This document shows, in pieces, positions 4,213 through 30,615 of a DNA stretch of 64,000 bases. The translations under genes were made by a program, and so were the position numbers. Numbering within the stretch: position 1 is the stretch's first letter; every line of letters starts with the position of its first letter. The notes under the pieces are model-generated. The model saw nothing but the letters and a program-made list of their open reading frames with translations. It was not told where the DNA came from and searched no databases. This DNA comes from Nitrospinaceae bacterium (GTDB taxonomy: Bacteria; Nitrospinota; Nitrospinia; Nitrospinales; VA-1), in contig BQJC01000004.1 in NCBI GenBank assembly GCA_021604505.1, forward strand, positions 88,117 through 152,116, in the 5' to 3' direction.

Positions 4213-4940
4213 AATCTTCAAAAAAGGTTACATTTTTCTTATTTCTGGCCCTGGGGATTCTATCATCCAACGCCTACGGCGAAATCATTCAGGTCGACAG
4301 CGATTTCGATGGGAAACTGGACCAGTGGCACGAAATGTCCGAAGACGGCAAGCTCATCAAAATTGAATACGACACCAACGGGGATGGCAAGCTGGATCAG
4401 GTCGATATTTTTGAAGGCAACAAAAAACCCGTCCTCGCCAAGCTCGATCGCAATTTTGACGGAGTTCTTGACCAGTTTCAATTTTACTCCAAAAATTTTT
4501 CCCTCGAACGTATCGAAAAAGATTCCAGGTTTAACGGGAAAGTGGACAGAAAAGAATTTTTCGGTTCCAATCAAAAGATATCCCGCATTGAAATCGATGA
4601 AAACCTGGATGGCACGATGGATATTTTTCAATTTTTTGATAAGCAGGAAGTCTTGGTCCGGGTGGAATACGACACCAACAAAAATAACAAAATCGATCGT
4701 TGGGAATACTTTGCCGGCGAAGAAAATCTTCAGTCCGCGGCTTTCGATTCGAATGGCGACGGCAAGCAAGACCAATGGCAATACTTTAAAGGCTCAACAA
4801 CACCGGAAAAAGTGGAATACGACATCAATCTGGATGGCGAGGTGGACCGCTGGGAGTATTTTGAACCCTCCGGCCAATTGATGCGCGTCGAGCTGGACAG
4901 AAATTACGATGGAATAACCGACATGGTCAAACGCAGATAA
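4209..4940 (+). CDS. Secreted repeat protein with about 9 DxDxDG-type (EF-hand-like) calcium-binding hairpin repeats
   Basis: Signal peptide FFLFLALGILSSNAYG. Repeats of about 24 aa such as YDTNGDGKLDQ, LDRNFDGVLDQ, FDSNGDGKQDQW and YDINLDGEVDRWEYF. Its ATG overlaps the tonB stop (ATGA). Confidence 0.65.
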   Translation: MKSSKKVTFFLFLALGILSSNAYGEIIQVDSDFDGKLDQWHEMSEDGKLIKIEYDTNGDGKLDQVDIFEGNKKPVLAKLDRNFDGVLDQFQFYSKNFSLERIEKDSRFNGKVDRKEFFGSNQKISRIEIDENLDGTMDIFQFFDKQEVLVRVEYDTNKNNKIDRWEYFAGEENLQSAAFDSNGDGKQDQWQYFKGSTTPEKVEYDINLDGEVDRWEYFEPSGQLMRVELDRNYDGITDMVKRR

Positions 4941-4956: not shown

Positions 4957-5349
4957 ATGACAGCATTTCGAGGGTTGGTACTTTTTTCGCTTCTCTTTGT
5001 GGCTTCATGCGCTCCGGAGGCCACCAAAGAGGTTCCTCAAGAATTTAAAGCGGGACAAAAGTATTATCATAAAGTGTGTTCCAATTGCCACGGGGCCGAC
5101 GCAATGGGCAAGCACACTCAAGCCCCCCGACTCATCGATGCAGAATATATTGAAGAAAATTTTTCGGATGAGGAATTTTCCGAAACCATTATCCATGGAA
5201 TCAATAAAATGCCTTCGCAGAGAAGCAAGTTGACCGATGAAGAAATTGCGGAAATCATCAAATACCTGCGTTATTCCCAGAAAATAGCGGGCCTTGTCGT
5301 GGAAGAAGACGTCGAAGAAGAAATGTTAAACGATGAAGATGCTCAGTAA
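4957..5349 (+). CDS. Small class-I-like c-type cytochrome, probable lipoprotein
   Basis: Signal peptide with lipobox-like LLFVASC. Single heme-c motif CSNCH. Downstream INKMPSQ is a candidate Met axial ligand. Acidic C-terminal tail. Confidence 0.75.
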   Translation: MTAFRGLVLFSLLFVASCAPEATKEVPQEFKAGQKYYHKVCSNCHGADAMGKHTQAPRLIDAEYIEENFSDEEFSETIIHGINKMPSQRSKLTDEEIAEIIKYLRYSQKIAGLVVEEDVEEEMLNDEDAQ

Positions 5350-13002: not shown

Positions 13003-15456
13003 TCAATATTTGAACTGACTGACCAGTTTCTGCAGACTCTGAGCCATTCGCGAGAGCTCGTTAGCCGCCTCTTGCGTTTGACCGACCCCAGAGGAGGTTT
13101 CCTGAGCGGCCTGAGCCACGCCGGAAATGTTTTCGGAAATTTCGGCACTTCCTCTGGAGGTTTCAGCGACATTTCGGCCAATTTCCGCCGTTGTCGCCGT
13201 CTGTTCTTCTACGGCGCTGGCGATGGTGTTTGAAATATCGTTGATCTGATTGATGATTTGCGTGATCTCACCGATGGCATCCACCGAACTTTTGGTGTCC
13301 TGTTGAATGGCTTCGATTTTTTGACTGATGTCCTCCGTGGCTTTGGCCGTTTGGTTCGCCAGTTCCTTAACCTCGTTGGCGACGACCGCAAAGCCTTTTC
13401 CGGCTTCCCCGGCACGTGCCGCCTCGATAGTGGCGTTTAGGGCCAGGAGATTGGTCTGCTCCGCGATCGAGGTGATGACCTTGATCACCTGACCGACCTC
13501 CGCACTGCTGTCTCCCAGTTTCGCGACGGTCTGATTAGTGGTTTCCGCAACCTCTACCGCGGATTTTGCCACCCGGGCCGCTTCGTTGGCGTTCTGAGCA
13601 ATTTCCTTGATACTCGCGCTCATTTCATCTGCCCCGGTAGAAACCGTTTGAACATTTTTACTGATCTGCTCAGTTGCGGCTGACACGACATTGGCCTGAG
13701 CGGAAGTTTCCTCGGCGTTTCCGGCCATGGTCTGGCTCACCGAGGTCAACTCCTCTGAAGAACTGCCCAGAGTCTGCGCCATATTCGCAATTTCAGAAAT
13801 GCTGTTTCTAAGATTCTTGAAAAATCCAGACAACCCTTCACCCATTCGACCAATAGCGTCTTCGCCCTTAATCGCAATTTCCTGGGTCAGGTCCCCTTGG
13901 GAAGCGCTGCTCACAACCCCAAGGATACTATCCACTTTTTCACGCAATTCCTGTGCCTGATGCTGGTCGCGCTCAACCATTTCTTGAGCTTTTTTCTCAT
14001 TTTCGATCTTTTCAGTGACCACCTGCCAGGAGAGCATTGGGCCAAGATAAGTGCCTTCTTTGTCGAAAATTCCCGCGACCATAACGTCAAAGGTTTCCGG
14101 GCCAAATTTAATCAATGACTGATGCGGTGAACCATTGGAATTTGAAATACTATTCCTTGCATCGTTCGGGATTTGATAAATAACGTCCATTGACTGGCCA
14201 ATCAGTTCCTCCGACGAAACTGAAAGATGCTGGCTCAATTTCGAGAAGAGTTGCTTGGCCGCCGGGTTGACGTAACGGATATTGAAATCCGTATCGGCGT
14301 AAACCATATAGCCTGGGTTGTTTTCCACCATTCCTGCCACCCGCGCCATCTGGGTTTCCGCTTCCACTTTTTCTGTCACGATTTCCCAGGACAACATCGG
14401 CCCGAGATATTCATGGTTCTGATCGAAAACAGCACTGACGGCGATATCGATTTTTTCCTCCCCGACAGTAATCAACGTATGTATTGGAAGGTTATTGGGA
14501 TCGGATACAATTCTTCGCTGATGATCCGGATTTTTGTGGAAAAGATCGATGGATTGCCCAATGATGTTGTCCTCGCCCACCGGCAGAAATTTTTCCAGTT
14601 TCTTCATTATTTTTTTGGATTCCGCGTTCAAGTATTGGATATTCCAGTTTTTGTCCGCGAACATGGCCCCTTTCGGAGTATTTTCCATCATCGAAACAAT
14701 TTTAGCGGTTTCCGTTTCCGATCTTTTCATCGACCGCATGAACATCCAGACGCCGGCAACCATCATGCCTACTAAAACCAGACAAAAAGCAGTAATACCG
14801 ATCACGCGGCTCAACATGGAATCATTCGCCACAAGTTGCGTGTCGATGGGAGAAATGACCTCAAGCACACCCCGCACGTCTCCCAATTTCCAATTATTTT
14901 TCGGAGTATCAGCACGGCTGTTGTGACAGTTGACACAGGCTTCAGCGATCATCCTGTCCGCCACCGCCACACGCACGACTTCCTGTCCGTTCAGCGATTC
15001 CTGTCTTACAAAAGAATCATCAGGATTGGCTCTAAAAAATGCCAATGCATCCGTCCCGAAACCATCCAGTTTCCTGTCTGCTCTGTTCGGGAAAGGAAAT
15101 TCACTGTAAAGTTTTAATTTCACTTTATCTTCGCCTTTTTTACTCAACAATGCACTCATGTCATGAATCAAAGTGGCAGGCAGGGGAATCCCGTCAGGCA
15201 TGGTTTCGTGATCGTAGGAAATTTTCAAACCGGTATCGTTCCCCTTGACTTTTTTAATGACGCTTTTAACGTAATACGCTCTCAGGGTTTTGAATTGATC
15301 AATAATGGATAACGCATTCAGCTTACTTCCTTCCTGGGTATTATGAAGGCTGGTATTAGAAATATAGATAATGAGCCCCACAATGCTAATTGCCAGAACC
15401 CCCACAACCGAAAACATCATTTTTGCCATGTGTTTTTTTAAAAACGCTTCATTCAT
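13003..15456 (-). CDS. Methyl-accepting chemotaxis protein with a periplasmic CXXCH (heme-c type) sensor domain and two PAS-like repeats
   Basis: TM1 ([18 protein letters not shown]). Periplasmic domain carrying [28 protein letters not shown], which resembles the Tll0287-like/DUF3365 domain. TM2. Two homologous PAS-like units of about 105 aa, both ending LGPMLSW(E/Q)(I/V)VTEK. C-terminal MCP signalling core [31 protein letters not shown]. Confidence 0.85.
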
Positions 15457-17376: not shown

Positions 17377-18687
17377 ATGCCTTACCGATACCTCAGCAAT
17401 CATCGAGGATATTTAATATCACTCCTTTTATTCGCGGTCGTTGCCTGCGGTAAAACCAACGCCGAAGACAAGGGAGGAAAGCCGGACAATCCTGTACCGG
17501 TAGTCGTTGCCCAGGTAAAAAAACAAGCGGCTATCGTCAATATAGAACTGCCGGGAACCATCCTCGCCTGGTCGACCACCCGCATGGCGGCTGAAATCGA
17601 TGGACGGGTGGAAAAGTTTTTCTACCAGGAAGGCGAGTATGTCCAAAAAGGCAAACCTATTGTGCAACTGCACACGCGGCCTCTGGAACTGGAGCTGGAT
17701 TTTGCCATGGCGGAAAGGGAACGCGCCGCCAACCGCCTGGAAGAATTGCAAACCGGAACACGGGTGGAGGTTCTGGATGCAGCCAAGGCGGCTTTGAATA
17801 AAGCCGAGGCCCGGGTTGAACTGACGAATCAGGAATATAAGCGGATTAAAAAATTAAAGGACGACGGCGTATTGAGCGTCAATGAATATGACAACGCAGT
17901 GGCTCAATGGGAAGAAGCCAGGGCGCAATTCAATGAGAGCAAAGCCAAATTGGATGAACACCTTGCCGGTCCCCGGATCGAACAGATCCAGCAGGAGGAA
18001 GCCAGTCTCTCTGCCGCGGAAGCGAAAGTCAATATCATAAAAGATCAAATCCACCGGGGAACGGCTTTTGCTCCCTTTAATGGCTTTCTGATCAAAAAAG
18101 AAACGGAAATCGGACAATGGCTGGAAAAAGGCGAGCCTTTGTTCACTCTGATTGCGGTCAACCCGGTCAAGGCGGAAGTGAACTTGCCGCAATCCCAGTT
18201 CAACAAGATCCAGCTGGGAATGCCCGCACAGGTGATATTGGAAACGGAAGATCCCAACGAGTCCAACCGGATTTTTAAGGGAAAAGTCATAGAGAAGATT
18301 CAATCCGGAGACCCGCAGTCCCGCACCTTTCCGGTACGAATTAAAATCGACAATCCCAAATCGGAAATCGCCGTTGGCATGCTGGTCCGTGTCCGATTCC
18401 ATCAGTCAACCCGGAAAAAACCACGCCTTTATGTTCCCAAAGACGCTCTGGTCCGTTCTCCTTTTGCCACCGTGGTCTGGCGGGTGGATAAAAAGGAAGA
18501 TCAAACCCATCGGGTTGAAAAAGTATCCGTGAAGACCGGTGATATATCTGAGAGCCTGATTTCCATAGACCCGGAAAATGATGGCATCAAAGAAAACGAT
18601 TGGGTGGTGGTGCATGGAAATGAGCGGCTTCGACCGGGAGGTCAAGTCAACGTCACCCAAAGCCCTCCTTCGCAAAAATCTCCATGA
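17377..18687 (+). CDS. RND efflux periplasmic adaptor (membrane fusion protein)
   Basis: Lipobox-like VVACG, a coiled-coil hairpin region, and beta-barrel/MP segments typical of the HlyD/AcrA family. Overlaps the downstream RND pump gene (ATGA). Confidence 0.8.
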   Translation: MPYRYLSNHRGYLISLLLFAVVACGKTNAEDKGGKPDNPVPVVVAQVKKQAAIVNIELPGTILAWSTTRMAAEIDGRVEKFFYQEGEYVQKGKPIVQLHTRPLELELDFAMAERERAANRLEELQTGTRVEVLDAAKAALNKAEARVELTNQEYKRIKKLKDDGVLSVNEYDNAVAQWEEARAQFNESKAKLDEHLAGPRIEQIQQEEASLSAAEAKVNIIKDQIHRGTAFAPFNGFLIKKETEIGQWLEKGEPLFTLIAVNPVKAEVNLPQSQFNKIQLGMPAQVILETEDPNESNRIFKGKVIEKIQSGDPQSRTFPVRIKIDNPKSEIAVGMLVRVRFHQSTRKKPRLYVPKDALVRSPFATVVWRVDKKEDQTHRVEKVSVKTGDISESLISIDPENDGIKENDWVVVHGNERLRPGGQVNVTQSPPSQKSP

Positions 18688-21600
18688 AGTGGATTGAAGG
18701 TTCATTAAAGTACGGAGTCACCGTGGCCGTGGGGGTCACCCTGATCATCCTGTTTGGCACCCTCTCCCTGTTCCGCATTCCCGTCCAGCTGGTTCCGGAT
18801 ATCAGCCAGCCCGAACTAACCGTCACCACCGAATGGCCGGGCGCCAGCCCGGAAGAAGTCGAACGGGACATCATCGATGAGCAGGAAAAACACTTAAAAT
18901 CGCTTGTGGGTCTGGTGGAGATGAAAAGCCTGTCTCAGACCGGCCGGGCGGACGTGTATCTCACGTTTCAAACGGGAGCGGATTTACAGGAAATTCTGGT
19001 TCGCACATCCAACGCCCTGCAACAGGTCACCTCATACCCGGAAGACGTGGATCAACCCAGAATCAAGACGGTGAACGTATCGGACCGCCCCATTGCCTGG
19101 TTCGTTCTGCAACCCCTGCCCGGAATGGAAAACGAAGTCAACGTTTACCATTACCGGGACTTCGCGGAGGATAAAATCCAATCCCGCTTCGAACGGGTGC
19201 CCGGCGTTTCAGACAGTGAAGTTCGCGGCGGCAGTCCCCTGGAGGTGCATGTCACATTCAATCCCGACGCACTGGCCGAACGGGGCTTGAGCGTTTTTGC
19301 CTTGCGGGAAGCCCTGCGCCAGCAAAACCACAATATCAGCGGCGGAGATTTTGATGAGGGCAAGCGCCGGTACATCATCCGCACCCAGGGAGAGTTCCGG
19401 TCCGTCGAAGACATCAAAAACACCATCCTCGCCCAGGTCAACGGACGCGCCATCTATACCAAAGATGTTGCCGAGGTGACGGTTGATTACGACGAGTTGA
19501 GAGACTACGTCCGTCATAACGGATTGGCGGGAATCGCCGTCAATGCCCGGAGGCAGCTGGGTTCAAATATCCTCACGGTCATGAAGGACCTGAAAAAGGT
19601 CCAGGCTGAAATGAACGAAAATTTGTTGCACCCCCTGGGCCTGCATCTGGTCCAGACCGCCGACAAAACCGAATACATCACGCGCTCCATCGACATGGTG
19701 CAACTCAATCTTGTGGTGGGGGGAATTTTCGCCACCCTCATTCTTCTGCTTTTTTTAAGAAGCTTATACAGCACGATGGTCATCGCCATCGCCATTCCCA
19801 TCAGCGTGATCGGGTCGTTTCTGGTGATCACCCTGATGGGCCGGACCATCAATGTCATCATGCTTGCGGGGATGGCATTCGCCGTAGGAATGGTGGTCGA
19901 TGCGTCGATCATTGTCCTGGAAAATATATACCGACACAAACAAATGGGAAAACCCACCCGCCAAGCGGCATTGGATGGCGCCAGCGAAGTCTGGGGCGCC
20001 ATTTTGGCGACCACTCTCACCACCCTGGCGGTGTTTGTTCCCATTCTTTTTATTGAAGAGGAAGTCGGGCAATTATTCCGCGACATTGCCGTGGCCATCA
20101 GCGCCGCGGTGACCCTTTCCATGATCGTGAGTATCCTGGTCATCCCCCCCTTGAGCAATAAACTTCTGCAATACGAATCCGAACACCCTAAGAGTGCAGC
20201 GTCCTATTTAAAAAAACTGTTTCAAAACCTTTTTGGAGTGTATGCGGTTGCGGCTAAATTGAGAAAAGTCATTCTTTCTTCGTTAAAAACCATTTTTCGT
20301 TCACGAAAAGCGCAATGGACCGTGGTCGCCTCGTTGACCCTCCTGCCCGTTATAGCGGCATGGGTCATGGTTCCCAAAGCGGAATACCTGCCCGAAGGAG
20401 AACAGAACGTCATCATCGGGATGATGATCCCCCCGCAGGGCTATAACATCCAGGAAGCCCACAGGCTGGGAAACGAACTGGAAAAAATTTACCGGCCTTA
20501 TTGGGAGGCGATGCCGGGAAGCGCGGAAGAAAAAAAATTAAAAGGACCCGCGGTACGGAATTTTCTGTTTATCGGCAGCCGGGGCCGGTTGTTCACTGTC
20601 GTCAAGGCCAAGGACCCTAAAAGATCAAAAGATCTCATTCCCGTTCTCAAGGAAGAACTGGAAAAGGCGCCCGGAATGATCGTGGTCACCCGCCAGCTTT
20701 CGTTACTCACCGGGGCATTCCGCGGTTCCCGGGGGATCGAGATCAATATCATGGGGCCCGATTTGGCGAAACTGACGTTGATCACGCAGAACGCGTTTTT
20801 CAAGCTCAAAACCTTGATGCCCGGCGCGCAGATCCGCCCCGTTCCAGGGATGGAACTCGGTCAGCCGCAAATTCAGATCATCCCCAAGTGGCGGGAAGTG
20901 GCGGAAATGGACGTGAATGTTTCTGAACTTGGCTATTCCGTTTCGGCCCTGGCGGACGGGGTGTTTGCCGATGAAGTCTACCTCGACCCCGAGAACCTTC
21001 AGGTCCCCTATGTACCGAGGGATGGAATCGACCTGATCCTGAAAAGCCGGGCGCAGGATGTGCAAAAAACTCAGGACATCGGCAAAATGGTGGTTTACAC
21101 CCGAAGAGGAAAAACCGTGCCGTTGACCAGTGTGGCCCTGCTCAAGGAAACGGTCAGCTCCGAACAGATCCAGCATTTTGAAAGGCAGCGGTCGATCACG
21201 CTTGAGGTGGTGCCGCCTGCGGCAATGCCGCTGGAAGAAGGCATCGACATTGTTCGCCAGGAAATCATTCAGCCTCTCATCGACGACGGCGCCTTGACCG
21301 GGGGCTATTCCATCAGCCTGACCGGAAACGCCGATAAACTGGAGAATACCCGAAAGGCGATCTCGGGGAATTTTATCCTGGCGATCATCATCACCTATCT
21401 TTTGCTCACCGTACTTTTTCAACACTGGGGATACCCTTTGATCATCATGCTGAGCGTTCCCCTGGCGGCGGTGGGAGGCGTGTTCGGTCTGTGGTTCCTG
21501 AATCTCTTCGTCCTTCAGCCGCTGGATGTACTGACGATGCTGGGGTTCATCATTCTAATCGGGGTGGTGGTCAATAATGCGATTTTGATCATCCACCAGA

Positions 21601-21872
21601 GTTTAAGGAATATGCGCGAAGAAAATATGGAACCCCAGCAGGCGATTCTGGAGAGCGTCAACACGCGTATCCGTCCGATTTTCATGAGCACCCTGACCAG
21701 TATTTTCGGCCTGATGCCGCTGGTGGCCCTGCCGGGCGCCGGCAGTGAAATTTACCGGGGCATCGGCATCGTGATACTATCCGGGTTATTCTTAAGCACC
21801 CTGTTCACTCTTTTTCTCATTCCTTGTCTAATGAACCTCAGCACCAGTAAAAATTTTCCGAAATATGGATAA
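18684..21872 (+). CDS. RND efflux transporter permease (AcrB/CzcA superfamily)
   Basis: 1,062 aa. Two large periplasmic loops and two 6-TM bundles. Motifs such as VMLAGMAFAVGMVVDASIIVLEN. Confidence 0.9.
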   Translation: MKWIEGSLKYGVTVAVGVTLIILFGTLSLFRIPVQLVPDISQPELTVTTEWPGASPEEVERDIIDEQEKHLKSLVGLVEMKSLSQTGRADVYLTFQTGADLQEILVRTSNALQQVTSYPEDVDQPRIKTVNVSDRPIAWFVLQPLPGMENEVNVYHYRDFAEDKIQSRFERVPGVSDSEVRGGSPLEVHVTFNPDALAERGLSVFALREALRQQNHNISGGDFDEGKRRYIIRTQGEFRSVEDIKNTILAQVNGRAIYTKDVAEVTVDYDELRDYVRHNGLAGIAVNARRQLGSNILTVMKDLKKVQAEMNENLLHPLGLHLVQTADKTEYITRSIDMVQLNLVVGGIFATLILLLFLRSLYSTMVIAIAIPISVIGSFLVITLMGRTINVIMLAGMAFAVGMVVDASIIVLENIYRHKQMGKPTRQAALDGASEVWGAILATTLTTLAVFVPILFIEEEVGQLFRDIAVAISAAVTLSMIVSILVIPPLSNKLLQYESEHPKSAASYLKKLFQNLFGVYAVAAKLRKVILSSLKTIFRSRKAQWTVVASLTLLPVIAAWVMVPKAEYLPEGEQNVIIGMMIPPQGYNIQEAHRLGNELEKIYRPYWEAMPGSAEEKKLKGPAVRNFLFIGSRGRLFTVVKAKDPKRSKDLIPVLKEELEKAPGMIVVTRQLSLLTGAFRGSRGIEINIMGPDLAKLTLITQNAFFKLKTLMPGAQIRPVPGMELGQPQIQIIPKWREVAEMDVNVSELGYSVSALADGVFADEVYLDPENLQVPYVPRDGIDLILKSRAQDVQKTQDIGKMVVYTRRGKTVPLTSVALLKETVSSEQIQHFERQRSITLEVVPPAAMPLEEGIDIVRQEIIQPLIDDGALTGGYSISLTGNADKLENTRKAISGNFILAIIITYLLLTVLFQHWGYPLIIMLSVPLAAVGGVFGLWFLNLFVLQPLDVLTMLGFIILIGVVVNNAILIIHQSLRNMREENMEPQQAILESVNTRIRPIFMSTLTSIFGLMPLVALPGAGSEIYRGIGIVILSGLFLSTLFTLFLIPCLMNLSTSKNFPKYG

Positions 21873-22557
21873 ACCGGCCCTGCTCAATTACTGGCAAAAA
21901 TTTTTTTCCGACCTCTTTCTGGGCACGTTTAAAAAATTGTTTCTCTTCAGCCTGACGGGGTTTGTTTCCGGTGTGCTGGTTTTGTTCGTCTTCAAATCCA
22001 CCATGATCGCGGAACTGGATTGGCAGGCGTGGCTCAAGACCCTGGTGCTTGTCCTGGTATTTTTCTGGTTCGGGGGGTTTGGAGTTTTTCACGGACTGAT
22101 CTCGTCCGTCATCCATGTGGTCGGAAAAAAGTTCAAGGAGGCGGTGCTCGGGTTGCATGACCTCCTGGACCTTTTCACCCGGGAAGTCATGACCAGAATT
22201 CCCAGGTTCAACAAAAGCACTCCCAGGGAGGAAATCGAAAAACAATTTGAAAATATCGGCAGGGATTTTCAGAACAAACTGCGCTTGAAAGGGATCACCG
22301 GCTGGATCTCAAGCCTGTTTTTTTGGGTCCTGGTCAAGGCATTGAAGATTTTATTTCTGGACAGCGTGGCGGAAGAATTGCTCAAAAACCCTTCCGACCA
22401 AATAGAGTCCAGCGACATCGAACACGCCGTCCGGCGGGTGGGCGTGGAAATTATCTTAGAGCCGATCACCGACAGTTTATTATTATTTCAAATCCTCAAC
22501 GGGGTTTTGGTCATCTTAATCTTCGCGATCCCCTTCGGGATATTTTTCTTGCTTTAA
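21865..22557 (+). CDS. Hypothetical integral membrane protein
   Basis: 230 aa with several hydrophobic helices. Its start overlaps the RND gene end by 8 nt, which implies co-transcription. Confidence 0.5.
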   Translation: MDKPALLNYWQKFFSDLFLGTFKKLFLFSLTGFVSGVLVLFVFKSTMIAELDWQAWLKTLVLVLVFFWFGGFGVFHGLISSVIHVVGKKFKEAVLGLHDLLDLFTREVMTRIPRFNKSTPREEIEKQFENIGRDFQNKLRLKGITGWISSLFFWVLVKALKILFLDSVAEELLKNPSDQIESSDIEHAVRRVGVEIILEPITDSLLLFQILNGVLVILIFAIPFGIFFLL

Positions 22558-22583
22558 AATTCCAGAAACCATAAAGTGTAAAA

Positions 22584-22889
22584 ATGGTTGATTCGGGCAA
22601 AAAACTAAAATCCTTTATTCCCAGGCTGGGCGTCCTTCTGGCGTTGCTCAGCTTCGGATTCATGATTGGCCTGGCCCCGGTGCTGCACGCTCATGAACTG
22701 GATTTTGATGCGGCACATGACGATTGCGCCCCCTGCCACTGGAGCCAATCCCATCAATCCGTTGAAACCACTGCAAACACGATATCCAAAACCTCACTGG
22801 TGTATACCCAGCCATTTTCCCCTGCCGAGTTCATCGGCCAGCAGTTTACCAGCAACGTCCTCAACCGCGGTCCCCCTCTTCTTTCGTAG
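22584..22889 (+). CDS. Membrane-anchored Cys/His-rich mini-protein, paralog 1 (101 aa)
   Basis: TM anchor LGVLLALLSFGFMIGLAPVL, then HAHELDFDAAHDDCAPCHW (contains CXXCH). Conserved C-terminus PAEFIGQQFTSNVLNRGPPLLS. Confidence 0.7.
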   Translation: MVDSGKKLKSFIPRLGVLLALLSFGFMIGLAPVLHAHELDFDAAHDDCAPCHWSQSHQSVETTANTISKTSLVYTQPFSPAEFIGQQFTSNVLNRGPPLLS

Positions 22890-22982
22890 CACCCCACTCG
22901 TAAAACAAACAATATTTTTTTAAGATCCTTGAAATGCTTCCTGCGTAAAGGAACGTTTCCCCGTGGTCTTCTGTGCAAAAAA

Positions 22983-23288
22983 ATGGTCCTTCTGGATAAA
23001 AAACTAAAATCCTTTCTTCCAAGGCTGGGTGTTCTTCTGGTTTTGCTCAGCTTCGGGTTCATGACCGGCCTGGCTCCGGTGTTGCACGCTCATGAATTTG
23101 ATTTCGATGTAGCTCATGACAATTGCGCTCCCTGTCACTGGGTTCAATCCAATCAATCCGTCGAAACCTCCGTCAACACATTGGCAGCAGCCCCCCTGCT
23201 ACAATTTTCGATCTTTTTTCCTGCCGAGTTCATCGGCCAGCCGTTCACTGGCAACGTCCTCAACCGCGGCCCTCCCCTGCTTTCGTAA
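22983..23288 (+). CDS. Membrane-anchored Cys/His-rich mini-protein, paralog 2 (101 aa)
   Basis: About 75% identical to paralog 1 and the same length. HAHEFDFDVAHDNCAPCHW and ...NVLNRGPPLLS. ATG at 22983 chosen by alignment with paralog 1. Confidence 0.7.
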   Translation: MVLLDKKLKSFLPRLGVLLVLLSFGFMTGLAPVLHAHEFDFDVAHDNCAPCHWVQSNQSVETSVNTLAAAPLLQFSIFFPAEFIGQPFTGNVLNRGPPLLS

Positions 23289-23374
23289 CCTCTCGCTAAT
23301 CATCCAACTATAAATTTGGGATCACTCCTGCGCAAAGACGCGTTCGCCCGTGGTCCTCTTAATGGAGAGTGTTT

Positions 23375-24553
23375 ATGAAATCCTTGAACCTGTTCTCTTT
23401 GGTGTTGCTCTGCGTCCTGATGGGCTCAAATGCCAGCGCCGAAGATAAAAAATATTTTAAAAACCGTATCGAGCAACTCGAAAACCGCGTGAAGCAACTG
23501 GAATCTGAAAAGTCCCAAAAAGCTTCCCCATCCGGTAGTGAACGCGCTTCCGGGTCGACCACAGCTACAGGAATTTCCCGCTATTTCAATCCCGCCATCA
23601 GCGTCAACGGCCTGCTTCTTGGAACCTATACCAACCGGGGAAGAAATGACGCCTCGCGGGAAGTAAAAACCGGAATGAAGATTCAGGAAGTGGAAATGCG
23701 CTTCACCGCAAACATCGACTCCTACCTCACAGGAGATCTGACGATCGCCTTTGAAGGCGATGAAGTGGAAATTGAAGAGATCATCGCTTCCCTGCTTGTG
23801 ACCAACAATCTGGCTTTCCGGGCCGGAAAGTTTTTCACGCCCTTTGGAAAGCACAACCTTCTGCACACCCATAACTTCCCATTCATTGACGCGCCTTTAA
23901 TCAATGAGGAAATTCTCGGTGAGGAAGGCATCAATGAAGTTGGAGTGGGTGCGTCGGTTCTATTGCCAACCCCCTGGTTCTCGGAGGTCAACCTGCAAAT
24001 CCTGGAAGGTGACAACGCGCTGTTCAGCGGTCCGTTGAATGATGATTTTCTTTATCTCGCCCATTGGAAAAATCTCATCGACCTCACACGCGAGTTGACC
24101 GCCGAACTTGGAGGCTCCTTCGCCTATGGCCGCAACGACCTCATAACCGGCCCCTATAACCACACCACCCTGGCGGGAGCCGACATGACGTTCAAATGGA
24201 AACCGGCAGGCCGGGAAAAATACCGCACGCTGATATGGCAGACCGAGTTCATGAACTCATCTAAAAACATAGATAAAAAGGGCATTTACACGCTCGTGCA
24301 ACACCAGTTCGCCCGCCGCTGGTGGGTCCAGGGGCGCTACGATTTTTTGACCCTTCCCCGCGACGCCGTCGGCGGCGGCGAGGTGAAACAGGACAAACAC
24401 CGTTACGCCGGTCTTCTGGCGTTTGTGCTCAGCGAATTTTCCGCACTCAGACTGCAATACAGTTTTCTGGATTCGTCCATCGCTGAAAACGAGCATCAGG
24501 TGCTTTTGCAACTCAACTTCACATTCGGGTCGCATCCGGCGCACTCTTATTGA
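23375..24553 (+). CDS. Putative outer-membrane beta-barrel (porin-like) protein
   Basis: Signal peptide ending SNASA. N-terminal coiled coil (NRIEQLENRVKQLESE). Alternating beta-strand pattern through to the C-terminal LLQLNFTFG. GGAGAG RBS 5 nt before the ATG at 23375. Confidence 0.6.
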   Translation: MKSLNLFSLVLLCVLMGSNASAEDKKYFKNRIEQLENRVKQLESEKSQKASPSGSERASGSTTATGISRYFNPAISVNGLLLGTYTNRGRNDASREVKTGMKIQEVEMRFTANIDSYLTGDLTIAFEGDEVEIEEIIASLLVTNNLAFRAGKFFTPFGKHNLLHTHNFPFIDAPLINEEILGEEGINEVGVGASVLLPTPWFSEVNLQILEGDNALFSGPLNDDFLYLAHWKNLIDLTRELTAELGGSFAYGRNDLITGPYNHTTLAGADMTFKWKPAGREKYRTLIWQTEFMNSSKNIDKKGIYTLVQHQFARRWWVQGRYDFLTLPRDAVGGGEVKQDKHRYAGLLAFVLSEFSALRLQYSFLDSSIAENEHQVLLQLNFTFGSHPAHSY

Positions 24554-24580: not shown

Positions 24581-25534
24581 ATGAGACCTTTCAATTTAAT
24601 AAAAATTGTTTTCGTTTTTTTCTTAATCGGTTTATCCCATCCGGCAATGGCGATGGCCAAAATCAATGTCGTGACCACCACCGAAGACATTGCATCCATT
24701 GTCAGAGAAGTCGGGGGAAACCGGGTTGCCGTGCAAAGCATCGCCAGAGGCTATCAGGACCCGCACGTCGTTGAAGCCAAGCCCAGCTACATGCTGAAAA
24801 TCAACCGCGCCGATTTACTGGCGTATCAGGGTCTGGAACTGGAGGTGGGCTGGCTTCCCTTATTGATCCAAGGTGGCAGGAATAAAAAAGTCATGCCGGG
24901 ACAATTGGGCCATCTGGACGTATCCCACGCCATCACGCCCCTGGAAGTTCCCGCAGGGCAACTGGACCGCTCGATGGGCGATGTGCATCCGCTCGGAAAC
25001 CCGCACTACACCTTGAATCCCGAGAATGGTCTGTTGATCGCCGCTGTCATCGCGGAGCGGTTGAGTCAGCTCGACCCATCCGGCTCACAAAGCTATCAGG
25101 CCAATTTAGAAAAGTTCCGTCAGCGTCTGAAAGCGAAAGTTGTTGAATGGAAATCCCGGTTGGAAAAATTCAAGGGTTCCAAGGTGGTCACGTACCACAC
25201 GACCTGGAGTTACCTTCTGGATTTTTTTAAAATCGAATCGGTTGGCGCCATTGAAAACCGCCCCGGAATTCCCCCCAGTGGACGACACCTCGCCGAACTG
25301 GCAACCTTGATGAATCAAACCGGCACCAAAGTCATTCTGCAGGCCAACTATTTCGATGACGAATTTTCACAATTGCTGGCCAGCAAGACCGAGGCAACGG
25401 TGCTGGCTCTTCCAGTGGCGGTAGGAGGCACGGAAGAAGCGCAGGACACCTTCACTTTATTTGAGATTTTGGTCGATAAACTGGAAAAGGCTTTTGCGAA
25501 ACATCAATCCCTCATTAAAAAGGAAAATCATTAA
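24581..25534 (+). CDS. Metal ABC transporter substrate-binding protein (ZnuA/TroA family)
   Basis: Signal peptide. DPHVVEAKPS, HPLGNPHYTLNP and YHTTWSYL are typical cluster A-I metal-binding-protein motifs. Confidence 0.8.
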   Translation: MRPFNLIKIVFVFFLIGLSHPAMAMAKINVVTTTEDIASIVREVGGNRVAVQSIARGYQDPHVVEAKPSYMLKINRADLLAYQGLELEVGWLPLLIQGGRNKKVMPGQLGHLDVSHAITPLEVPAGQLDRSMGDVHPLGNPHYTLNPENGLLIAAVIAERLSQLDPSGSQSYQANLEKFRQRLKAKVVEWKSRLEKFKGSKVVTYHTTWSYLLDFFKIESVGAIENRPGIPPSGRHLAELATLMNQTGTKVILQANYFDDEFSQLLASKTEATVLALPVAVGGTEEAQDTFTLFEILVDKLEKAFAKHQSLIKKENH

Positions 25535-25540
25535 ATCGAT

Positions 25541-26362
25541 ATGAGTGAATTTCTGACATTCATGGGTCCATCGGCAGCTGCCTGCTTCCTGCTCGCCGTC
25601 ATTTACACCTATTTTGGCTGTCACGTTTTAAAGCGCGAGATCATTTTCATCGATCTATCGCTTGCCCAGTTGGCCGCGCTGGGGACAACCACCGCCTTCG
25701 CACTTGACCTCGAACTGGATGCTTCCGGTTCTTTCGCCCTGTCACTTTTGTTTGTGGTTGCGGGGTCGGTGTTTTTTTCAACCACGCGCAATCTCGGGAA
25801 AAGCATTCCCCAGGAAGCCGTCATCGGAATCGTTTACGTCGTCAGCGCCTCGGTGGCCCTGCTTCTCGCAAGCGGGATGCCGCACGGAGCGGAGCATTTG
25901 AAAACGCTTTTAAACGGCTCCATCCTGTGGATCACCTGGGGGGGAGTCCTGCAAATTTTCGGTGTGACCCTGGGAGTCGGCGGATTGCACTGGGCAATGA
26001 GAGCCCAGTTTTTTAAACTCTCGGAAACTTACAAAAACGCCGATGCCGCAAATTCACTGAGTAAAACCTGGGATTTTTTGTTTTACGTCACCTTAGGGTT
26101 GGTGATCGTCTTCTCGGTCAGAACGGCGGGTGTTTTTTTGATTTTCACATTTCTTATTATCCCCGCGGTCTGCGGGGCGCTGTTTTCCCCATCGATGGTC
26201 CGGCAATTCATCACAGGTTCCATCCTTGGCATTGTCGTCAGTCTGGCGGGTTTGCTCCTTTCGTTTTTTCTCGATTTACCTACAGGCGCCACGCTCGTCT
26301 GTTCCTTCGGCACGGTCTTTTTTGCGTCTCTTGTGCTGAGGCGGTTTCGGCCGTCTATCTAG
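25541..26362 (+). CDS. Metal ABC transporter permease (ZnuB/TroC family)
   Basis: 273 aa with about 8 hydrophobic helices. Immediately follows the binding-protein gene. Confidence 0.75.
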   Translation: MSEFLTFMGPSAAACFLLAVIYTYFGCHVLKREIIFIDLSLAQLAALGTTTAFALDLELDASGSFALSLLFVVAGSVFFSTTRNLGKSIPQEAVIGIVYVVSASVALLLASGMPHGAEHLKTLLNGSILWITWGGVLQIFGVTLGVGGLHWAMRAQFFKLSETYKNADAANSLSKTWDFLFYVTLGLVIVFSVRTAGVFLIFTFLIIPAVCGALFSPSMVRQFITGSILGIVVSLAGLLLSFFLDLPTGATLVCSFGTVFFASLVLRRFRPSI

Positions 26363-26775: not shown

Positions 26776-27642
26776 ATGTCTCGAGCCCAGACCGGGATTT
26801 CTCCCCTCCTTCCAAAACACACCTTGATTGTCTCTTTCCAGGTCCGGGATATCCCCTTGACCGCAATGAGCGTCGGGCACGTTGCGGCCAATGTTCCAGG
26901 GCTCGCCAATGAATTTAGAAAGTCGGCCACGGGTTCGGATCTGGTCTATACCATCGGGTTCGGCTGGCAGGTGTGGAATTTCATCTGGCAGGGCGCCATG
27001 CCCCCTGGGTTTTCCCATCTTGAGGTCGAAGAAAACGAGGATGAGATCGAAGAAGATGATGAGGACGATGACGAGCCCGGTCCGCACCTCCTGTTTAGTT
27101 TTTCCGCCTCGGAACCGGAGGTTCTCCGCGAACTGGCCGAGCAAAGCAGGACCCACCTGAAAAATATCGCCGACGTTCATGAAATGGTCCTGGCAACTCC
27201 GGTTGCAGACCCGGAGCATCCTTCTCCTAAAAGCCGGGAAACAGCTGTAGAAGCTTTGATTGGCCAGCAGAACGCGGAATACGCGCAAAGCAGTTATTTA
27301 TTGGCCCTAAATATGACATCGGAAAAAGCAACCGCGGACAACAGCTTATCCAGGGATGTTACAACCCTCACCGAAAACCAATCCGGCCTCATCTCTCATC
27401 TATATGGCTGTAAAACAGAAACCGAATCCAAACATTACCTAATGGCATTTTGTAATCACGTCCGGCCCTTTCAGGGGATTCTCGATCGAATCGCCGTGCC
27501 CTCCGATTCCCTCAAGGCTCCCTGGAGCGATATTGCGGTATGCCCTTCCCTGTTTTTCCTGCCTTCGCTTGAAATACTGGGAGCCTTGCGAATGGGAACG
27601 CTGAGAATGGGACCCCTCTCGCCCACCGCCCGCTGGAAATAA
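26776..27642 (+). CDS. Hypothetical protein with an acidic low-complexity insertion
   Basis: 288-aa ORF. EVEENEDEIEEDDEDDDEPG insertion. The N-terminus (QTGISPLLPKHTLIVSFQV) faintly recalls DyP-type peroxidase N-termini, but the distal GXXDG-type motif is not seen. Confidence 0.45.
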   Translation: MSRAQTGISPLLPKHTLIVSFQVRDIPLTAMSVGHVAANVPGLANEFRKSATGSDLVYTIGFGWQVWNFIWQGAMPPGFSHLEVEENEDEIEEDDEDDDEPGPHLLFSFSASEPEVLRELAEQSRTHLKNIADVHEMVLATPVADPEHPSPKSRETAVEALIGQQNAEYAQSSYLLALNMTSEKATADNSLSRDVTTLTENQSGLISHLYGCKTETESKHYLMAFCNHVRPFQGILDRIAVPSDSLKAPWSDIAVCPSLFFLPSLEILGALRMGTLRMGPLSPTARWK

Positions 27643-27794: not shown

Positions 27795-28280
27795 ATGGTT
27801 AAGAAGGATAGCGTGGTCAGCATGAGTTACAACTTGAAAAATGCCGCAGGTGAAGAACTGGGCAGTGCCGATAGCGCCAAGCCCCTCACCTACCTTCAAG
27901 GGTCGGGACAGATCGTTCCCGGTCTGGAAAATGCCCTCGAAGGGTTGGTTATCGGTGATAAAAAGGATGTCACTCTCACCGCCCAGGAAGGCTATGGAGA
28001 GTTGAATCCTGAATTAAAAATGAAGGTGGAACGCAAAATGTTCCCCCCCGATGCGGAAATCAAGGCCGGGATGCAGTTTCGCGCCAACATCGGCGGCGAT
28101 CGCGAGCACACGTTCACCGTCATGGATGTTCAAAACGACGATGTTTTTGTCGACGGCAATCATCCCCTGGCGGGACAAACACTGCATTTTTCAGTTGAGA
28201 TCGTCGGCATTCGGGAAGCTACCCAGGAAGAACTGACGCATGGCCACGCCCATGGACCGGACGGAACCCATTCCCATTGA
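27795..28280 (+). CDS. slyD: FKBP-type peptidyl-prolyl isomerase SlyD
   Basis: FKBP core with an inserted IF domain, GNHPLAGQTLHF, and a His-rich tail HGHAHGPDGTHSH. Confidence 0.85.
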   Translation: MVKKDSVVSMSYNLKNAAGEELGSADSAKPLTYLQGSGQIVPGLENALEGLVIGDKKDVTLTAQEGYGELNPELKMKVERKMFPPDAEIKAGMQFRANIGGDREHTFTVMDVQNDDVFVDGNHPLAGQTLHFSVEIVGIREATQEELTHGHAHGPDGTHSH

Positions 28281-28309: not shown

Positions 28310-30097
28310 TCACGCTGGAGACAGGATGTTGAGGCGTTCCCGAATATCTTCTCTTTGATGATGCCCAAGATACAGCAGGCCGTCTGACAGGGAGTAGTTG
28401 TCCGGGAAGGTCATCACTTCCCGTCCCAGTTTTTCGATGATTTCCTGATACAGTTCCGTGGCTTGTTCCGCCGTCATGCCCACCGTCCCTTCATAGGAAT
28501 ACCCCAGGCTCAAATCCTGATCCGGCGGCGTGTAGATTTTGGTGATATGCCATTCGGCGGGATTCTTTTCGAGGGGTGTGCCTTTTTCCAGGTCGAATTG
28601 CGAGGCGATGCAGGAAAAACCCGGCGAATCGAGCAGTCTCTGATTGTCGAGCACAAAGTTGACGGAATCCATGACTTCTTCCCGCGTCTCAGTGGGAAAC
28701 CCGCAGATCAGGTAAAAATGCATGGCGATGCCGATGCGCAGACATTCTTCCACCGTTTTGTCGACGACCTCCAGTTCAACCCCTTTTTTCATGGAATCGA
28801 GAACGCGCTGGTTGTAGGATTCCAAACCGAAAATCAGTTTCCGGCATCCCGAACGGTAGAGCAGTTCCATCCGGTTTTCCTTCAAGAGACTCTTCTCAAA
28901 CTTCAACTCACCGGTCCACTGAATGTCCAGCTCCTGATCGACGATTTTTCCGGCGAAGGTTTTCATGAAGTTGATGGGCAACGCCTCGTCGGTGAAGAAG
29001 AAATAATTGCAGTTGTATTTCTCCTTGAGGTTTCTCACGTCGTTGACCACATTTTCCGCATAGCGCACGTGAAAATCCATATGATCGAAAGGAATCGAAC
29101 AAAAAGCGCACCGCTCCCAGTAGCAACCGCGTGACCCCATGATCGGCAGAACGCGCTCCGGCGACAAATAAAGATCCAGAGGCAGGCCGTCAAAATCCGG
29201 CGTGGGAAGCGCATTCAGCTCTTCCTTGGCGAAAGGACGGTTGACCTGCACCTTGCCTTCCACTTCATAAGCCAGATTCGGCACCTTGGTAAGATCCTTG
29301 CCGCCTCGCAATTCCTGCACCAGACGTAGGAGGGGCGTCTCCCCTTCGTGCACGATGAAACTGTCGATAAACTTAAAGAGAGGCGAACCGTTTTTTTCCA
29401 GCCGGTCCACCAGCTTGGTGAACACACTGCCGCCGACCGTGATATGAATGTCCTTGCGGTGTTTCTTGACCAGGTGCGCCAGCGTCAATCCAGGGATGAT
29501 CTGCTCAACCGAGGTGATGGAAATTCCCAGGATGTCGATGTCCTTTTCCAGAATCGACGGCAGATACCATCGCTCATAAAGATCGTAGAAATAATTCTCT
29601 TCCGGGTGGTTGAACGAATCGATGATCTCCACAGAAGAATACGGCGTGAACCGCAACTGACTGCCAATGACGGTCAACTGCGATGGGTAATAAGGCGACA
29701 GGATATTGTCCAGCCAGACATCGATGATCTTGAGGCTTTCCATATACCGTTCCAGATCGTAAAAATCCTCCGAGCGCAGAGATTGCTTCGCCGCGTCTAT
29801 CTGATCTTTCAGTGATGGAATGATCTCTTCCGCCTCCAGCAGTTTGGCGTACTTCTCCTGCTCAAATTTATTGCGGTTGGAATTCGCTCTCAGTTCGTTG
29901 AGCTCGCGAATGATACGCTCGTACAACGGCTTGGTTTTCTCCCAGGTGCACAAATCGTCCAGCAGTTCGATCGCCAGATCGCGCTGAGCGACATCGTGGA
30001 TGCCGTTTTTTGCAAGAAACGCCTTGAGGCTGGGGAGACTGAGATAAGGCTGAGAAGGATGCCAGGAAGATGGAAACACCAGATAAATCATCAGCAA
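28310..30097 (-). CDS. B12-binding-domain radical SAM protein (class B-like)
   Basis: 595 aa. N-terminal region typical of the B12-binding-domain group (SQPYLSLPSLKAFLAKNG). Cysteine cluster GSRGCYWERCAFCS. TIM-barrel-length core. Confidence 0.7.
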   Translation of the reverse strand: MLMIYLVFPSSWHPSQPYLSLPSLKAFLAKNGIHDVAQRDLAIELLDDLCTWEKTKPLYERIIRELNELRANSNRNKFEQEKYAKLLEAEEIIPSLKDQIDAAKQSLRSEDFYDLERYMESLKIIDVWLDNILSPYYPSQLTVIGSQLRFTPYSSVEIIDSFNHPEENYFYDLYERWYLPSILEKDIDILGISITSVEQIIPGLTLAHLVKKHRKDIHITVGGSVFTKLVDRLEKNGSPLFKFIDSFIVHEGETPLLRLVQELRGGKDLTKVPNLAYEVEGKVQVNRPFAKEELNALPTPDFDGLPLDLYLSPERVLPIMGSRGCYWERCAFCSIPFDHMDFHVRYAENVVNDVRNLKEKYNCNYFFFTDEALPINFMKTFAGKIVDQELDIQWTGELKFEKSLLKENRMELLYRSGCRKLIFGLESYNQRVLDSMKKGVELEVVDKTVEECLRIGIAMHFYLICGFPTETREEVMDSVNFVLDNQRLLDSPGFSCIASQFDLEKGTPLEKNPAEWHITKIYTPPDQDLSLGYSYEGTVGMTAEQATELYQEIIEKLGREVMTFPDNYSLSDGLLYLGHHQREDIRERLNILSPA

Positions 30098-30294: not shown

Positions 30295-30615
30295 TTACGC
30301 TGGCTTGGGAGCCATAAACACCAGCATCACCAATTTTGCGTTCGTATGGTTGACCACACCGTGGTCCTGTCCACTGGGAGCCAGAGTGATTTCATCAGCG
30401 GTCATTTCGCGTTCCACAGTGCCGACGGTCACCTTGCCTTTTCCTTCCAGAACGTAGTAAACCTTGTCCGGCCCATCATGAGAGTGAATTTTCTGGGACT
30501 GACCCGGTTCAAAACAATATACATCACAAAAGAAATTGTCCGTATCGAAAAGAGGGACCTTTTTTAACTTTTCGGGGCTGAAAGCCACCCGATCTCTAAC
30601 TTTAACAACGTTCAT
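30295..30615 (-). CDS. Cupin domain protein
   Basis: 106 aa. Cupin motif 1 GQSQKIHSHDGPDKVYYVLEG and motif 2 region APSGQDHGVVN. Confidence 0.75.
   Translation of the reverse strand: MNVVKVRDRVAFSPEKLKKVPLFDTDNFFCDVYCFEPGQSQKIHSHDGPDKVYYVLEGKGKVTVGTVEREMTADEITLAPSGQDHGVVNHTNAKLVMLVFMAPKPA

Follow-up and report, generated by a model that had tools for sequence, protein, structure and literature searches.

Tandem mini-genes 5′ of a porin–ZnuA–permease cluster in Nitrospinaceae as candidate metal-sensing arrest-peptide leaders

The stretch of DNA analysed here (64 kb; the window) comes from a Nitrospinaceae metagenome-assembled genome and carries two tandem genes for mini-proteins of 101 amino acids (aa), recorded as NPINA01_28240 and NPINA01_28250 and annotated as "hypothetical". 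Directly 3′ lie genes for an outer-membrane barrel, a ZnuA-family metal-binding protein and an ABC-3 (ZnuB-type) permease (Table 1). On sequence grounds, the barrel is a remote member of the porin O/P superfamily; its homologs carry Pfam PF07396 (Porin_O_P), and its ATG is preceded by a Shine-Dalgarno sequence. We propose, with a probability of about 0.65, that the mini-genes are cis-acting upstream open reading frames (uORF1 and uORF2) coding for membrane-targeted, metal-sensing arrest peptides of the CruR/CutF (DUF2946-like) kind, which gate the porin–ZnuA–permease genes. The list of open reading frames (ORFs) starts uORF2 at a TTG at 22929; we prefer the ATG at 22983, because all homologs are 101 aa long.

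The two mini-proteins are identical at 75 of 101 positions (74%) in a gap-free alignment and, as an earlier note on this DNA had described, share a transmembrane (TM) anchor, a HAHE…CAPCHW cluster and a common C-terminus. Specifically, a K/R-rich N-terminus is followed by a 20-residue hydrophobic stretch at about residues 15–34 (22626–22685 in uORF1) and by the cluster LHAHE(L/F)DFD.AHD.CAPCHW, of which the uORF1 version, H35-x-H37…H45-D-D-C48-A-P-C51-H-W, is coded by 22686–22742. After a variable linker, both proteins end in PAEFIGQ.FT.NVLNRGPPLLS. The AlphaFold2 (AF2) model contains helices at residues 6–29 and 31–35 and a short helix at 49–57, the remainder being coil, with a predicted local distance difference test score (pLDDT) of 96 across residues 11–30. 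The hydrophobic segment is probably an N-in/C-out TM segment or export signal, and likely an uncleaved anchor. A signal-peptidase cut after LHA, giving an N-terminal-His 'brace', was considered and dropped; relatives have N, S or D at position −1.

A phmmer search returned 32 close homologs, nearly all exactly 101 aa long, in all of which the motifs are invariant. When 1.84 billion cluster representatives were searched exhaustively with the family profile, 57 proved to be members, and a profile search of a 5.8-billion-protein set gave 422 matches at E ≤ 1; among the best 120 of these 422, none has a Pfam domain and each named one belongs to Nitrospinota. The family-level conservation of the Cys/His cluster that the earlier note had named as a test is present: in a 47-sequence alignment (16–74% identity), the invariant residues are H35, H37, C48, C51, P97 and P98 only, with L34 nearly so. 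Among 161 members, the second His and the first Cys are 11 residues apart in 152, the second Cys and the Arg of RxPP are 44 apart (43 intervening residues) in 155, and RxPP is trailed by exactly three residues in 141. The motif reads RAPP in 88 of the 161, RGPP in 47 and RSPP in 19, and its Arg is swapped for L or K in a few family members only, while residues ~57–90 are variable and predicted to be coil. Within the window, R[AGS]PP is confined to the two mini-proteins and three short spurious ORFs. Judged by motif invariance, by the ratio of nonsynonymous to synonymous substitution rates (dN/dS) and by conservation of a 34-nt block (both below), the features of the mini-genes exceed chance.

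Pfam and NCBIfam scans of the two window proteins, the 32 homologs and the 47 diverse members gave no family above threshold, and the best CzcI-family NCBIfam match among the 47 is not significant (E = 0.059). One 2459-aa match (P0048) is a low-complexity repeat protein and was set aside as a false positive. The mini-proteins could be read as mini c-type cytochromes with a single CXXCH heme site, since the two window copies and each of the 32 close homologs contain CAPCH. However, the residue after the second Cys is His in only 128 of 161 members and is Q, S, N, T, K, E, L, G or I in the other 33, H52 is not invariant in the broad alignment, the AF2 model has neither a cytochrome fold nor a conserved distal ligand, and no cytochrome family of Pfam or NCBIfam scores above noise. 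The doubt that the earlier note had cast on heme was thus well placed; because the CXXCH His is not conserved in the family, we discard heme c, which we regard as extremely unlikely.

The earlier note had suggested a resemblance to DUF2946. The resemblance holds for the architecture (signal, CXXC, R-(A/G)-P-P and their spacing) and receives weak profile support, but it does not reach the Pfam threshold. With the limit relaxed to E ≤ 10, PF11162 (DUF2946) still matches neither window protein and none of the 32 close homologs, and three of the 47 distant members match at 13.6–18.4 bits, under the gathering threshold of 23.7, with the segment from CxxC to the C-terminus aligned to profile positions 51–117 of 117. 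With hhalign, the family profile (A5) aligns to seven annotated DUF2946 proteins from CxxC to the C-terminus in the correct register (78.9% probability, E = 1.6e-5), a score that draws largely on two short motifs, which convergence could also produce. The reference sequences were taken from the supplement of PMC12992588, and one was checked against PF11162 (44.6 bits). Searches with tblastn of the most DUF2946-like member against plasmids, and with BLASTP of paralog 1 against a proteobacterial HxxH…CxxC…RAPP uORF, gave no match, and Nitrospinota is absent from a published list of more than 2000 CruR homologs and from the supplements of two survey papers. The 43 intervening residues between CXXC and RxPP recur in the proteobacterial RAPP uORFs WP_124948721.1 and WP_223303491.1 (counted by us; PMC12992588 supplement). 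We conclude that the family is DUF2946-like in design and probably distantly related to DUF2946, outside its curated threshold.

Both prototypes of DUF2946 that have been characterised act in regulation as short-lived nascent peptides and are not chaperones (PMC9426467, PMC9973294). In CruR of Bordetella pertussis (Bp2923; Roy et al. 2022), copper sensed via CXXC relieves arrest at RAPP, and release of the arrest shuts off the downstream TonB-dependent transporter through Rho; RAPP lies at residues 139–142 of 145, the 45 residues between CXXC and RAPP are conserved within 1–2, and CXXC, spacing and RAPP are all three needed for regulation (PMC9426467). CutF, from cutFOG of Rhodobacter capsulatus (Öztürk et al. 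2023), acts as a sensor while still a nascent chain and is exported co-translationally (PMC9973294; bioRxiv 10.1101/2025.02.05.636593). Among the RAPP-like motifs tested, RGPP arrests most stably; it resists EF-P and has the lowest mean frequency of all tetrapeptides across 10 major bacterial groups (Fujiwara et al. 2025, PMC12992588). RAPP-like arrest occurs with the third codon of the motif in the P-site and the fourth in the A-site, and there is an enrichment, 5′ of TonB-dependent receptors, porins and copper/metal genes, of small exported proteins whose C-terminus bears RAPP or RGPP (PMC12992588).

The Nitrospinota family resembles CruR in being a small exported uORF product with an invariant CXXC, R-A/G-P-P three residues from the C-terminus, a similar CXXC–RxPP spacing (43 versus 45 intervening residues) and a poorly structured C-terminal half. 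It likewise stands directly 5′ of a gene for an outer-membrane uptake protein, and the expected logic, in which metal releases the arrest and uptake is turned off, is the same. It differs from CruR in an extra invariant H-x-H 11 residues before CXXC, in a segment that is probably an uncleaved TM anchor, in the occurrence of tandem copies and in its phylum. A C-terminal RAGP, RAPP or RGPP core causing arrest with Pro-tRNA in the A-site is also found in SecM-secA, ApdA, ApdP, ApcA and Streptomyces SLIV (PMC7897499, PMC10951233, PMC12992588), and arrest peptides of the SecM type further share an N-terminal localisation signal and control of the downstream gene via mRNA structure. The characterised ones monitor Sec/YidC, whereas the cue here is most likely metal at the His2Cys2 site. 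Such monitors canonically combine an N-terminal TM segment or signal with RGPP at the C-terminus, so the mini-proteins could report on Sec/YidC insertion or secretion (SecM, MifM or ApdA/ApdP type) with no metal involved. We consider this very unlikely: what lies downstream is neither sec nor yidC but genes for a porin and a metal importer, and the invariant residues other than Pro are two His and two Cys at fixed spacing.

The mRNA around the uORF2 stop codon is complementary to the porin start region. In the window, the last uORF2 codons, the stop and the 6 nt beyond can pair with the Shine-Dalgarno sequence and AUGAAA of the porin gene in a helix that we call P0, and the porin AUG has an unpaired probability of 0.01 in the free mRNA; P0 pairing and accessibility are thermodynamic predictions throughout. 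In all 14 units that directly precede a downstream gene in the loci compared, the last codons, stop and ~7 further nt are complementary to the AUG together with its upstream bases. When the units are anchored on stop and start codons, each position of a 12-bp core is paired in 9–14 of the 14, position +4 shows a compensatory C-G to U-A exchange, and P0 is present in the minimum-free-energy fold of each unit. Duplex energies run from −11.9 to −17.5 kcal/mol, whereas shuffled sequences average −4 to −10, and only 0–61 of 500 shuffles are as good, statistics that overstate the significance because related sequences are not independent.

P0 is, by the same predictions, re-invented with other sequences in three deep-branching porin-type loci. 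In one of these (L017), UCCUCUUAUAG pairs with CUAUGGGAGGA; in cultured Nitrospina gracilis 3/211, CUCCUGAA pairs with UUCAGGAG; and in the third (L020), Shine-Dalgarno sequence and AUG are both sequestered. In a further locus (L019), which has a 199-nt spacer, the duplex-energy test gave no stop-region/start-region duplex, and in the minimum-free-energy fold the Shine-Dalgarno sequence is bound by the Pro codons. Once the uORF end is blocked up to +3, as a stalled ribosome would do, the modelled mean unpaired probability of the start region rises from 0.08–0.32 to 0.32–0.61, and that of the AUG from ~0 to ~0.5 in most units. P97 in the P-site would put the stop codon at about +15, the leading edge of the ribosome, which would explain the conserved three-residue tail after RxPP. 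In the same vein, RxPP would stand exactly three codons from the stop because the stop region pairs with the start region of the next gene.

The earlier note had taken the mini-proteins for an undescribed periplasmic metal-relay component, and they could indeed be stable membrane-anchored metal-binding proteins (a chaperone, a relay or a CzcI/CopL-like modulator) that pass metal between the porin, ZnuA or the RND pump encoded upstream. The invariant His2Cys2 cluster adjoins the TM anchor, metal-transport genes are always neighbours, and some CutF-like relatives, CzcI among them, have no Pro motif and yet come up in the literature as metal-sensing regulators. CzcI/CopL/SilD-type proteins (the 'CutF-like' network) resemble the family as small exported Cys/His proteins encoded beside metal-transport genes; CzcI differs in lacking the C-terminal Pro motif and in lying 5′ of efflux genes. 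A relay would, however, leave unexplained the invariant RxPP, the 44-residue distance from CxxC, the three-residue distance to the stop and the pairing of the stop region with the next ribosome-binding region. Furthermore, the rest of the protein, from about residue 57 to 90, is variable and predicted to be coil, RGPP is strongly avoided in ordinary proteins, the DUF2946 prototypes are regulatory and undetectable in mature form, and adjacency to the RND pair is not conserved. We therefore abandon the relay, which is improbable on this evidence, and keep the proposal that the mini-genes act as regulatory uORFs.

Two further elements separate each mini-gene from the next start codon. The linkers that directly follow the mini-gene stops (n = 17, 29–38 nt) are unstructured and contain 2% G, against 24% in the window, and 23% C. 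Then comes the 34-nt block that the earlier note had reported at 22939–22972 and 23326–23359; as described, the two agree at 27/34 positions, and 10 and 15 nt separate their ends from the next ATG. They do stand upstream of start codons, but are better seen as lying 3′ of each paralog, so that the block belongs to a duplicated unit of ~399 nt. The block is conserved 3′ of every mini-gene in related Nitrospinaceae loci with a downstream porin.

Together with a 5′ partner strand, the block forms an element of 41–53 nt, P1/P2. On a structure-blind alignment, 76.8% of its cells are paired, compared with 71.9% after shuffling (0 of 500 shuffles reach the observed value) and 42–60% in slid controls, and both sides have changed in 11 of the 18 pairs. 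A covariance model of P1/P2 finds the 18 expected sites and nothing else in 229 kb. The block is thus part of a conserved, covarying RNA element, in line with the RNA option of the earlier note. The structures were derived from single-sequence folds, a trimmed alignment and the covariance model; RNAalifold returned no structure on the first MAFFT spacer alignment, in which the 5′ strands were misaligned. An Rfam scan of 22400–23500 gave two chance-level matches (E = 6.5 and 8.1), neither on P1/P2, and promoter and terminator scans of the spacers stayed at chance level. As a separate observation, the Arg-Gly codons (ACCGCGG) can pair with CCGUGGU on the 3′ side of P1 (22860–22868/22960–22968 and 23259–23267/23347–23355); this pairing is seen in the minimum-free-energy fold of copy a, and may be an alternative that ties the arrest site to P1.

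Table 1. Features of the leader, the proposed regulated genes and the genes 5′ of the leader (positions in the window).
Feature	Positions	Strand	Basis
uORF1 (leader ORF 1, paralog 1), 101 aa	22584–22889	+	sequence, homologs, AF2, dN/dS
uORF2 (leader ORF 2, paralog 2), 101 aa, architecture as uORF1	22983–23288, from ATG	+	sequence, homologs
uORF1 R95-G96-P97-P98 codons CGC GGT CCC CCT; predicted arrest site, stop three codons on	22866–22877	+	
uORF2 RGPP codons (residues 95–98 of 101)	23265–23276	+	
P0 5′ strand: last uORF2 codons, stop and 6 nt beyond, UUUCGUAACCUCUC	23281–23294	+	
P0 3′ strand: Shine-Dalgarno GGAGAG (23364–23369), spacer, AUGAAA (23375–23380) of porin gene	23364–23380	+	
G-depleted unstructured linker after uORF1; 1 G in 32 nt (22890–22921)	22890–22920	+	
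G-depleted linker after uORF2; 1 G in 29 nt (23289–23317); first 6 nt shared with P0 5′ strand	23289–23312	+	
P1/P2 copy a: outer helix AAGAUC/GGUCUU round hairpin UUCC/GGAA; 43.3 bits	22921–22971	+	
P1/P2 copy b: outer helix GGGAUCAC/GUGGUCCU round hairpin GCGC/GCGU; 29.1 bits	23313–23358	+	
Outer-membrane barrel (porin) gene, 392 aa, signal peptide and N-terminal coiled coil; proposed regulated gene 1	23375–24553	+	
ZnuA-family cluster A-I metal-binding protein gene; proposed regulated gene 2	24581–25534	+	PF01297, E = 3.7e-47
ABC-3 (ZnuB-type) permease gene; proposed regulated gene 3	25541–26362	+	PF00950, E = 5.4e-25
HlyD/AcrB-type RND pair, 5′ of the mini-genes	17377–21872		profile scans
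Gene for 230-aa multi-TM membrane protein	21865–22557	+	Pfam/NCBIfam: no family

The linker and P1/P2 also bear on how an arrest would be read out. The same arrest sensors could act through transcription, as in CruR: a stalled ribosome would bar Rho from the G-poor tract, release would lead to termination before the porin, and P1/P2 would be a structure related to pausing or termination in place of a clamp that helps to hide the start site; such an output could coexist with P0. In accordance with this, an unstructured linker of low G and 23% C directly follows every stop, as a Rho-utilisation (rut) site might, uORF1-type units keep linker and P1/P2 without P0, so that these parts must act alone there, CruR itself acts in this way, and L019, whose long spacer precedes a TonB-dependent receptor gene, is without a stop/start duplex. 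On the other hand, the linker is short for a rut site and mostly A/U, the spacers hold no terminator-like signal above chance, and Rho alone does not explain a P0 that is conserved and re-invented. As the sole output, a Rho switch seems rather unlikely, although Rho-dependent attenuation via the G-poor linker may act instead of P0 or in addition to it. Sequestration of the start site by P0 is the apparent output here, whereas CruR uses Rho termination in a 162-nt spacer.

Mini-gene pairs occur in the window and in four other loci (L003, L004, L010 and L014), and the identity matrix points to duplication on at least two to three separate occasions. The two window copies are each other's closest relatives, as are those of L010. 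The window paralogs have a synonymous divergence (dS) of 0.71 and a dN/dS of 0.23 overall and 0.09 in the arrest tail; the pair is old, with both copies under purifying selection. The upstream-copy units retain the linker and P1/P2, their pseudo-Shine-Dalgarno sequence has decayed, and their 3′ ends can still bind the start region of the porin gene (−10 to −14 kcal/mol). In our view, uORF1 may be a second sensor or a spare anti-start-site strand.

We compared 22 loci, most of them obtained from exact-protein look-ups; genome and metagenome pattern scans gave four loci each. Wherever a locus is complete enough to judge, the mini-gene stands directly 5′ of an uptake-type gene and shares its strand, with spacers of 86–199 nt. 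The target in most loci, those of Nitrospinales and N. gracilis 3/211 included, is porin, ZnuA and ABC-3. In Nitrospinaceae, the gene for the 230-aa membrane protein is followed by one or two mini-genes, a barrel of 384–414 aa, ZnuA, sometimes an ArsP_2 permease, and ABC-3; the ArsP_2 '10TM heavy-metal exporter' permease stands between ZnuA and ABC-3 in L001, L004 and L014. The 230-aa gene is directly 5′ of the mini-genes in every Nitrospinaceae locus and absent from the N. gracilis locus and from a Nitrospinales genome (34% identity), which has mini-gene, barrel, ZnuA and ABC-3. N. gracilis encodes a 99-aa member (…LHSHEFDLKDLHQDCSPCHF…SGRSPPLFS; HG422173.1, L021:3591–3890) 110 nt 5′ of porin, ZnuA and ABC-3, and there and in L017 the mini-gene is apparently first in its cluster. 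The position between an RND efflux system and an importer, stressed in the earlier note, is true of the window, but the RND pair is present in some Nitrospinaceae loci only.

Other targets occur in a few loci. In L019, on a Nitrospinae contig, a RAPP member lies 199 nt 5′ of the TonB-dependent receptor gene. Two loci (L002:6426–7280 and L011:4475–5302) have, in place of porin–ZnuA–permease, a gene for an unknown 275–284-aa exported protein with an N-terminal signal-like segment followed by HQ(L/F)GTPF. Because these two keep the uORF and the stop-region/start-region helix despite the other target, the leader module seems portable between target genes. As a side observation, in L018 a divergent 99-aa member at 4399–4698 (−) adjoins a divergently transcribed TonB-ExbB-ExbD cluster, and a second 99-aa ORF lies on the opposite strand at 5001–5300 (+), the contig ending before any downstream gene.

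A radical S-adenosylmethionine (radical-SAM) gene also recurs near the mini-genes, which raises the question of ribosomally synthesised and post-translationally modified peptides (RiPPs). The mini-proteins might be precursors of a metal-binding peptide, processed by this enzyme and imported via the porin/ABC system. The window enzyme best matches the RiPP C-methyltransferase family TIGR03975 (133.7 bits), a homologous gene is directly 5′ of the mini-gene on the same strand in L017, and a radical-SAM/cupin pair lies near the mini-gene of L019. However, the TIGR03975 match is below its cutoff of 281.85 bits, the enzyme gene is ~5 kb away on the opposite strand in most loci, and N. gracilis has none within 4 kb. 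No protease, exporter or recognition-domain gene accompanies it, a TM anchor and an RxPP tail are atypical of such precursors, and P0 would go unexplained, all of which makes a RiPP origin highly unlikely.

The importer hints at the metal that an arrest peptide would sense. We aligned the ZnuA-like protein with PsaA, using what we take, from the PsaA structure, to be its metal ligands; the aligned residues are His, His, His (in place of Glu) and Asp. His/His/His/Asp is the zinc-type pattern among cluster A-I binding proteins. The best NCBIfam match of the protein is AztC, far under the AztC cutoff. No gene for an ATPase (ZnuC) was found at the importer locus, and a six-frame Walker-A scan of the window gave a single match, an unrelated kinase-like ORF near 12804 (−). 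Given the His2Cys2 set of the mini-proteins and the zinc-type binding protein, the sensed metal is most likely Zn(II). The target would thus differ from that of CruR, being a porin and ZnuA/ABC-3, probably for Zn and not Cu.

We infer ribosome arrest and the direction of regulation at this leader by analogy, the sign being taken from CruR and homeostatic logic and the RNA output from CutF and SecM. In the proposed mechanism, the N-terminal segment would insert co-translationally, N-in/C-out, bringing H35-x-H37 and C48-x-x-C51 to the periplasmic face. Forty-three residues on, the ribosome would stall at R-G-P-P, P97 occupying the P-site and P98 the A-site, and, with the stop three codons past the motif, would cover the last codons and the stop. 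In free mRNA, the uORF2 stop region would be held in P0 with the porin start site, and P1/P2 would close the intervening ~85–100 nt. Stalling on uORF2 would free the porin start site, and porin, ZnuA and permease would be made. Plentiful metal would bind the His2Cys2 cluster, compact or pull the nascent chain and release the arrest; after termination P0 would re-form and turn the importer off.

This scheme is close to CutF in its co-translationally exported nascent sensor, its Cys motif, its C-terminal Pro-rich stalling motif and a stem-loop between uORF and next gene that keeps the Shine-Dalgarno sequence covered and is opened by the stalled ribosome. In contrast to the family, CutF has CxxxC and an EF-P-dependent PPP-type motif, and metal induces its stalling so that a detoxifying oxidase is turned on; for the importers here the opposite sign is expected. 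Moreover, the anti-start-site strand here is the stop-codon region of the uORF, and a separate domain, P1/P2, closes the loop.

Besides the PF11162 result and the two limits on the alignment and shuffle scores given above, several findings weigh against this reading. In window copy b, the partner of the Shine-Dalgarno sequence is CCUCUC just past the stop, beyond a strict +15 ribosome footprint, and for this reason the modelled opening is partial (0.29 to 0.46); in L001 and L006, the AUG remains paired with the uORF end blocked. A P0 joining the end of uORF1 to the start of uORF2 was rejected on duplex energies, so the scheme does not account for uORF1-type units, which have no P0 to the next start, and a thermodynamic model of the whole leader shows no clear two-uORF AND gate. 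The 230-aa gene ends 26 nt before the mini-genes, so that the uORFs are not first in the operon in the window and its close relatives. Finally, the probable zinc assignment derives from ligand patterns, and CruR works through Rho and not a stem-loop, so the output mechanism here may differ.

A wider joint reading, which we offer tentatively and regard as doubtful as a whole, would make this the first zinc-responsive (His2Cys2) nascent-chain sensor, spread across Nitrospinota, with a stop-codon/start-codon helix, a two-sensor gate produced by tandem duplication and P1/P2 as an independent module. If so, the upstream 3′ end would be a spare anti-start-site strand, full induction would need both uORFs stalled, giving a sharper response, and P1/P2 could control Rho, pausing or RNA stability.

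The Nitrospinota family and its RNA leader have not been described previously. Nascent-peptide control by metal has been shown for two copper systems, CruR and CutF, and is predicted broadly by the RAPP/RGPP surveys. If the proposal of metal-sensing uORFs holds, the locus would extend arrest-based metal control to a phylum of globally important marine nitrite oxidisers, to an apparent zinc-type importer with its own porin, and to a subfamily missed by Pfam DUF2946. The predicted RNA design is unusually clear, with the stop region of the uORF held against the start region of the following gene and the loop between them closed by a covarying clamp. The cultured N. gracilis 3/211 has a homolog, which makes the model directly testable. 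The case also cautions against annotating small Cys/His proteins of this type as metallochaperones.

The surroundings of the cluster are partly conserved. The 230-aa gene overlaps the end of the RND gene by 8 nt wherever the RND pair is present. Two genes 3′ of the importer, most related loci keep a gene for a SlyD-like FKBP peptidyl-prolyl isomerase (27795–28280, +), whose position and His-rich C-terminal tail (HGHAHGPDGTHSH) suggest a possible link to metal handling. Between the two, at 26776–27642 (+), a 288-aa acidic protein of no known family is encoded, which follows the permease in most loci and whose L002 ortholog has a weak Dyp-type peroxidase match at its N-terminus (E = 0.014). The radical-SAM gene of the window codes for a B12-binding enzyme (28313–30097, −) and adjoins a small cupin gene (30298–30615, −). 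On the other side, an 817-aa methyl-accepting chemotaxis protein with a Tll0287-like sensor domain (13003–15456, −) is syntenic in most Nitrospinaceae contigs.

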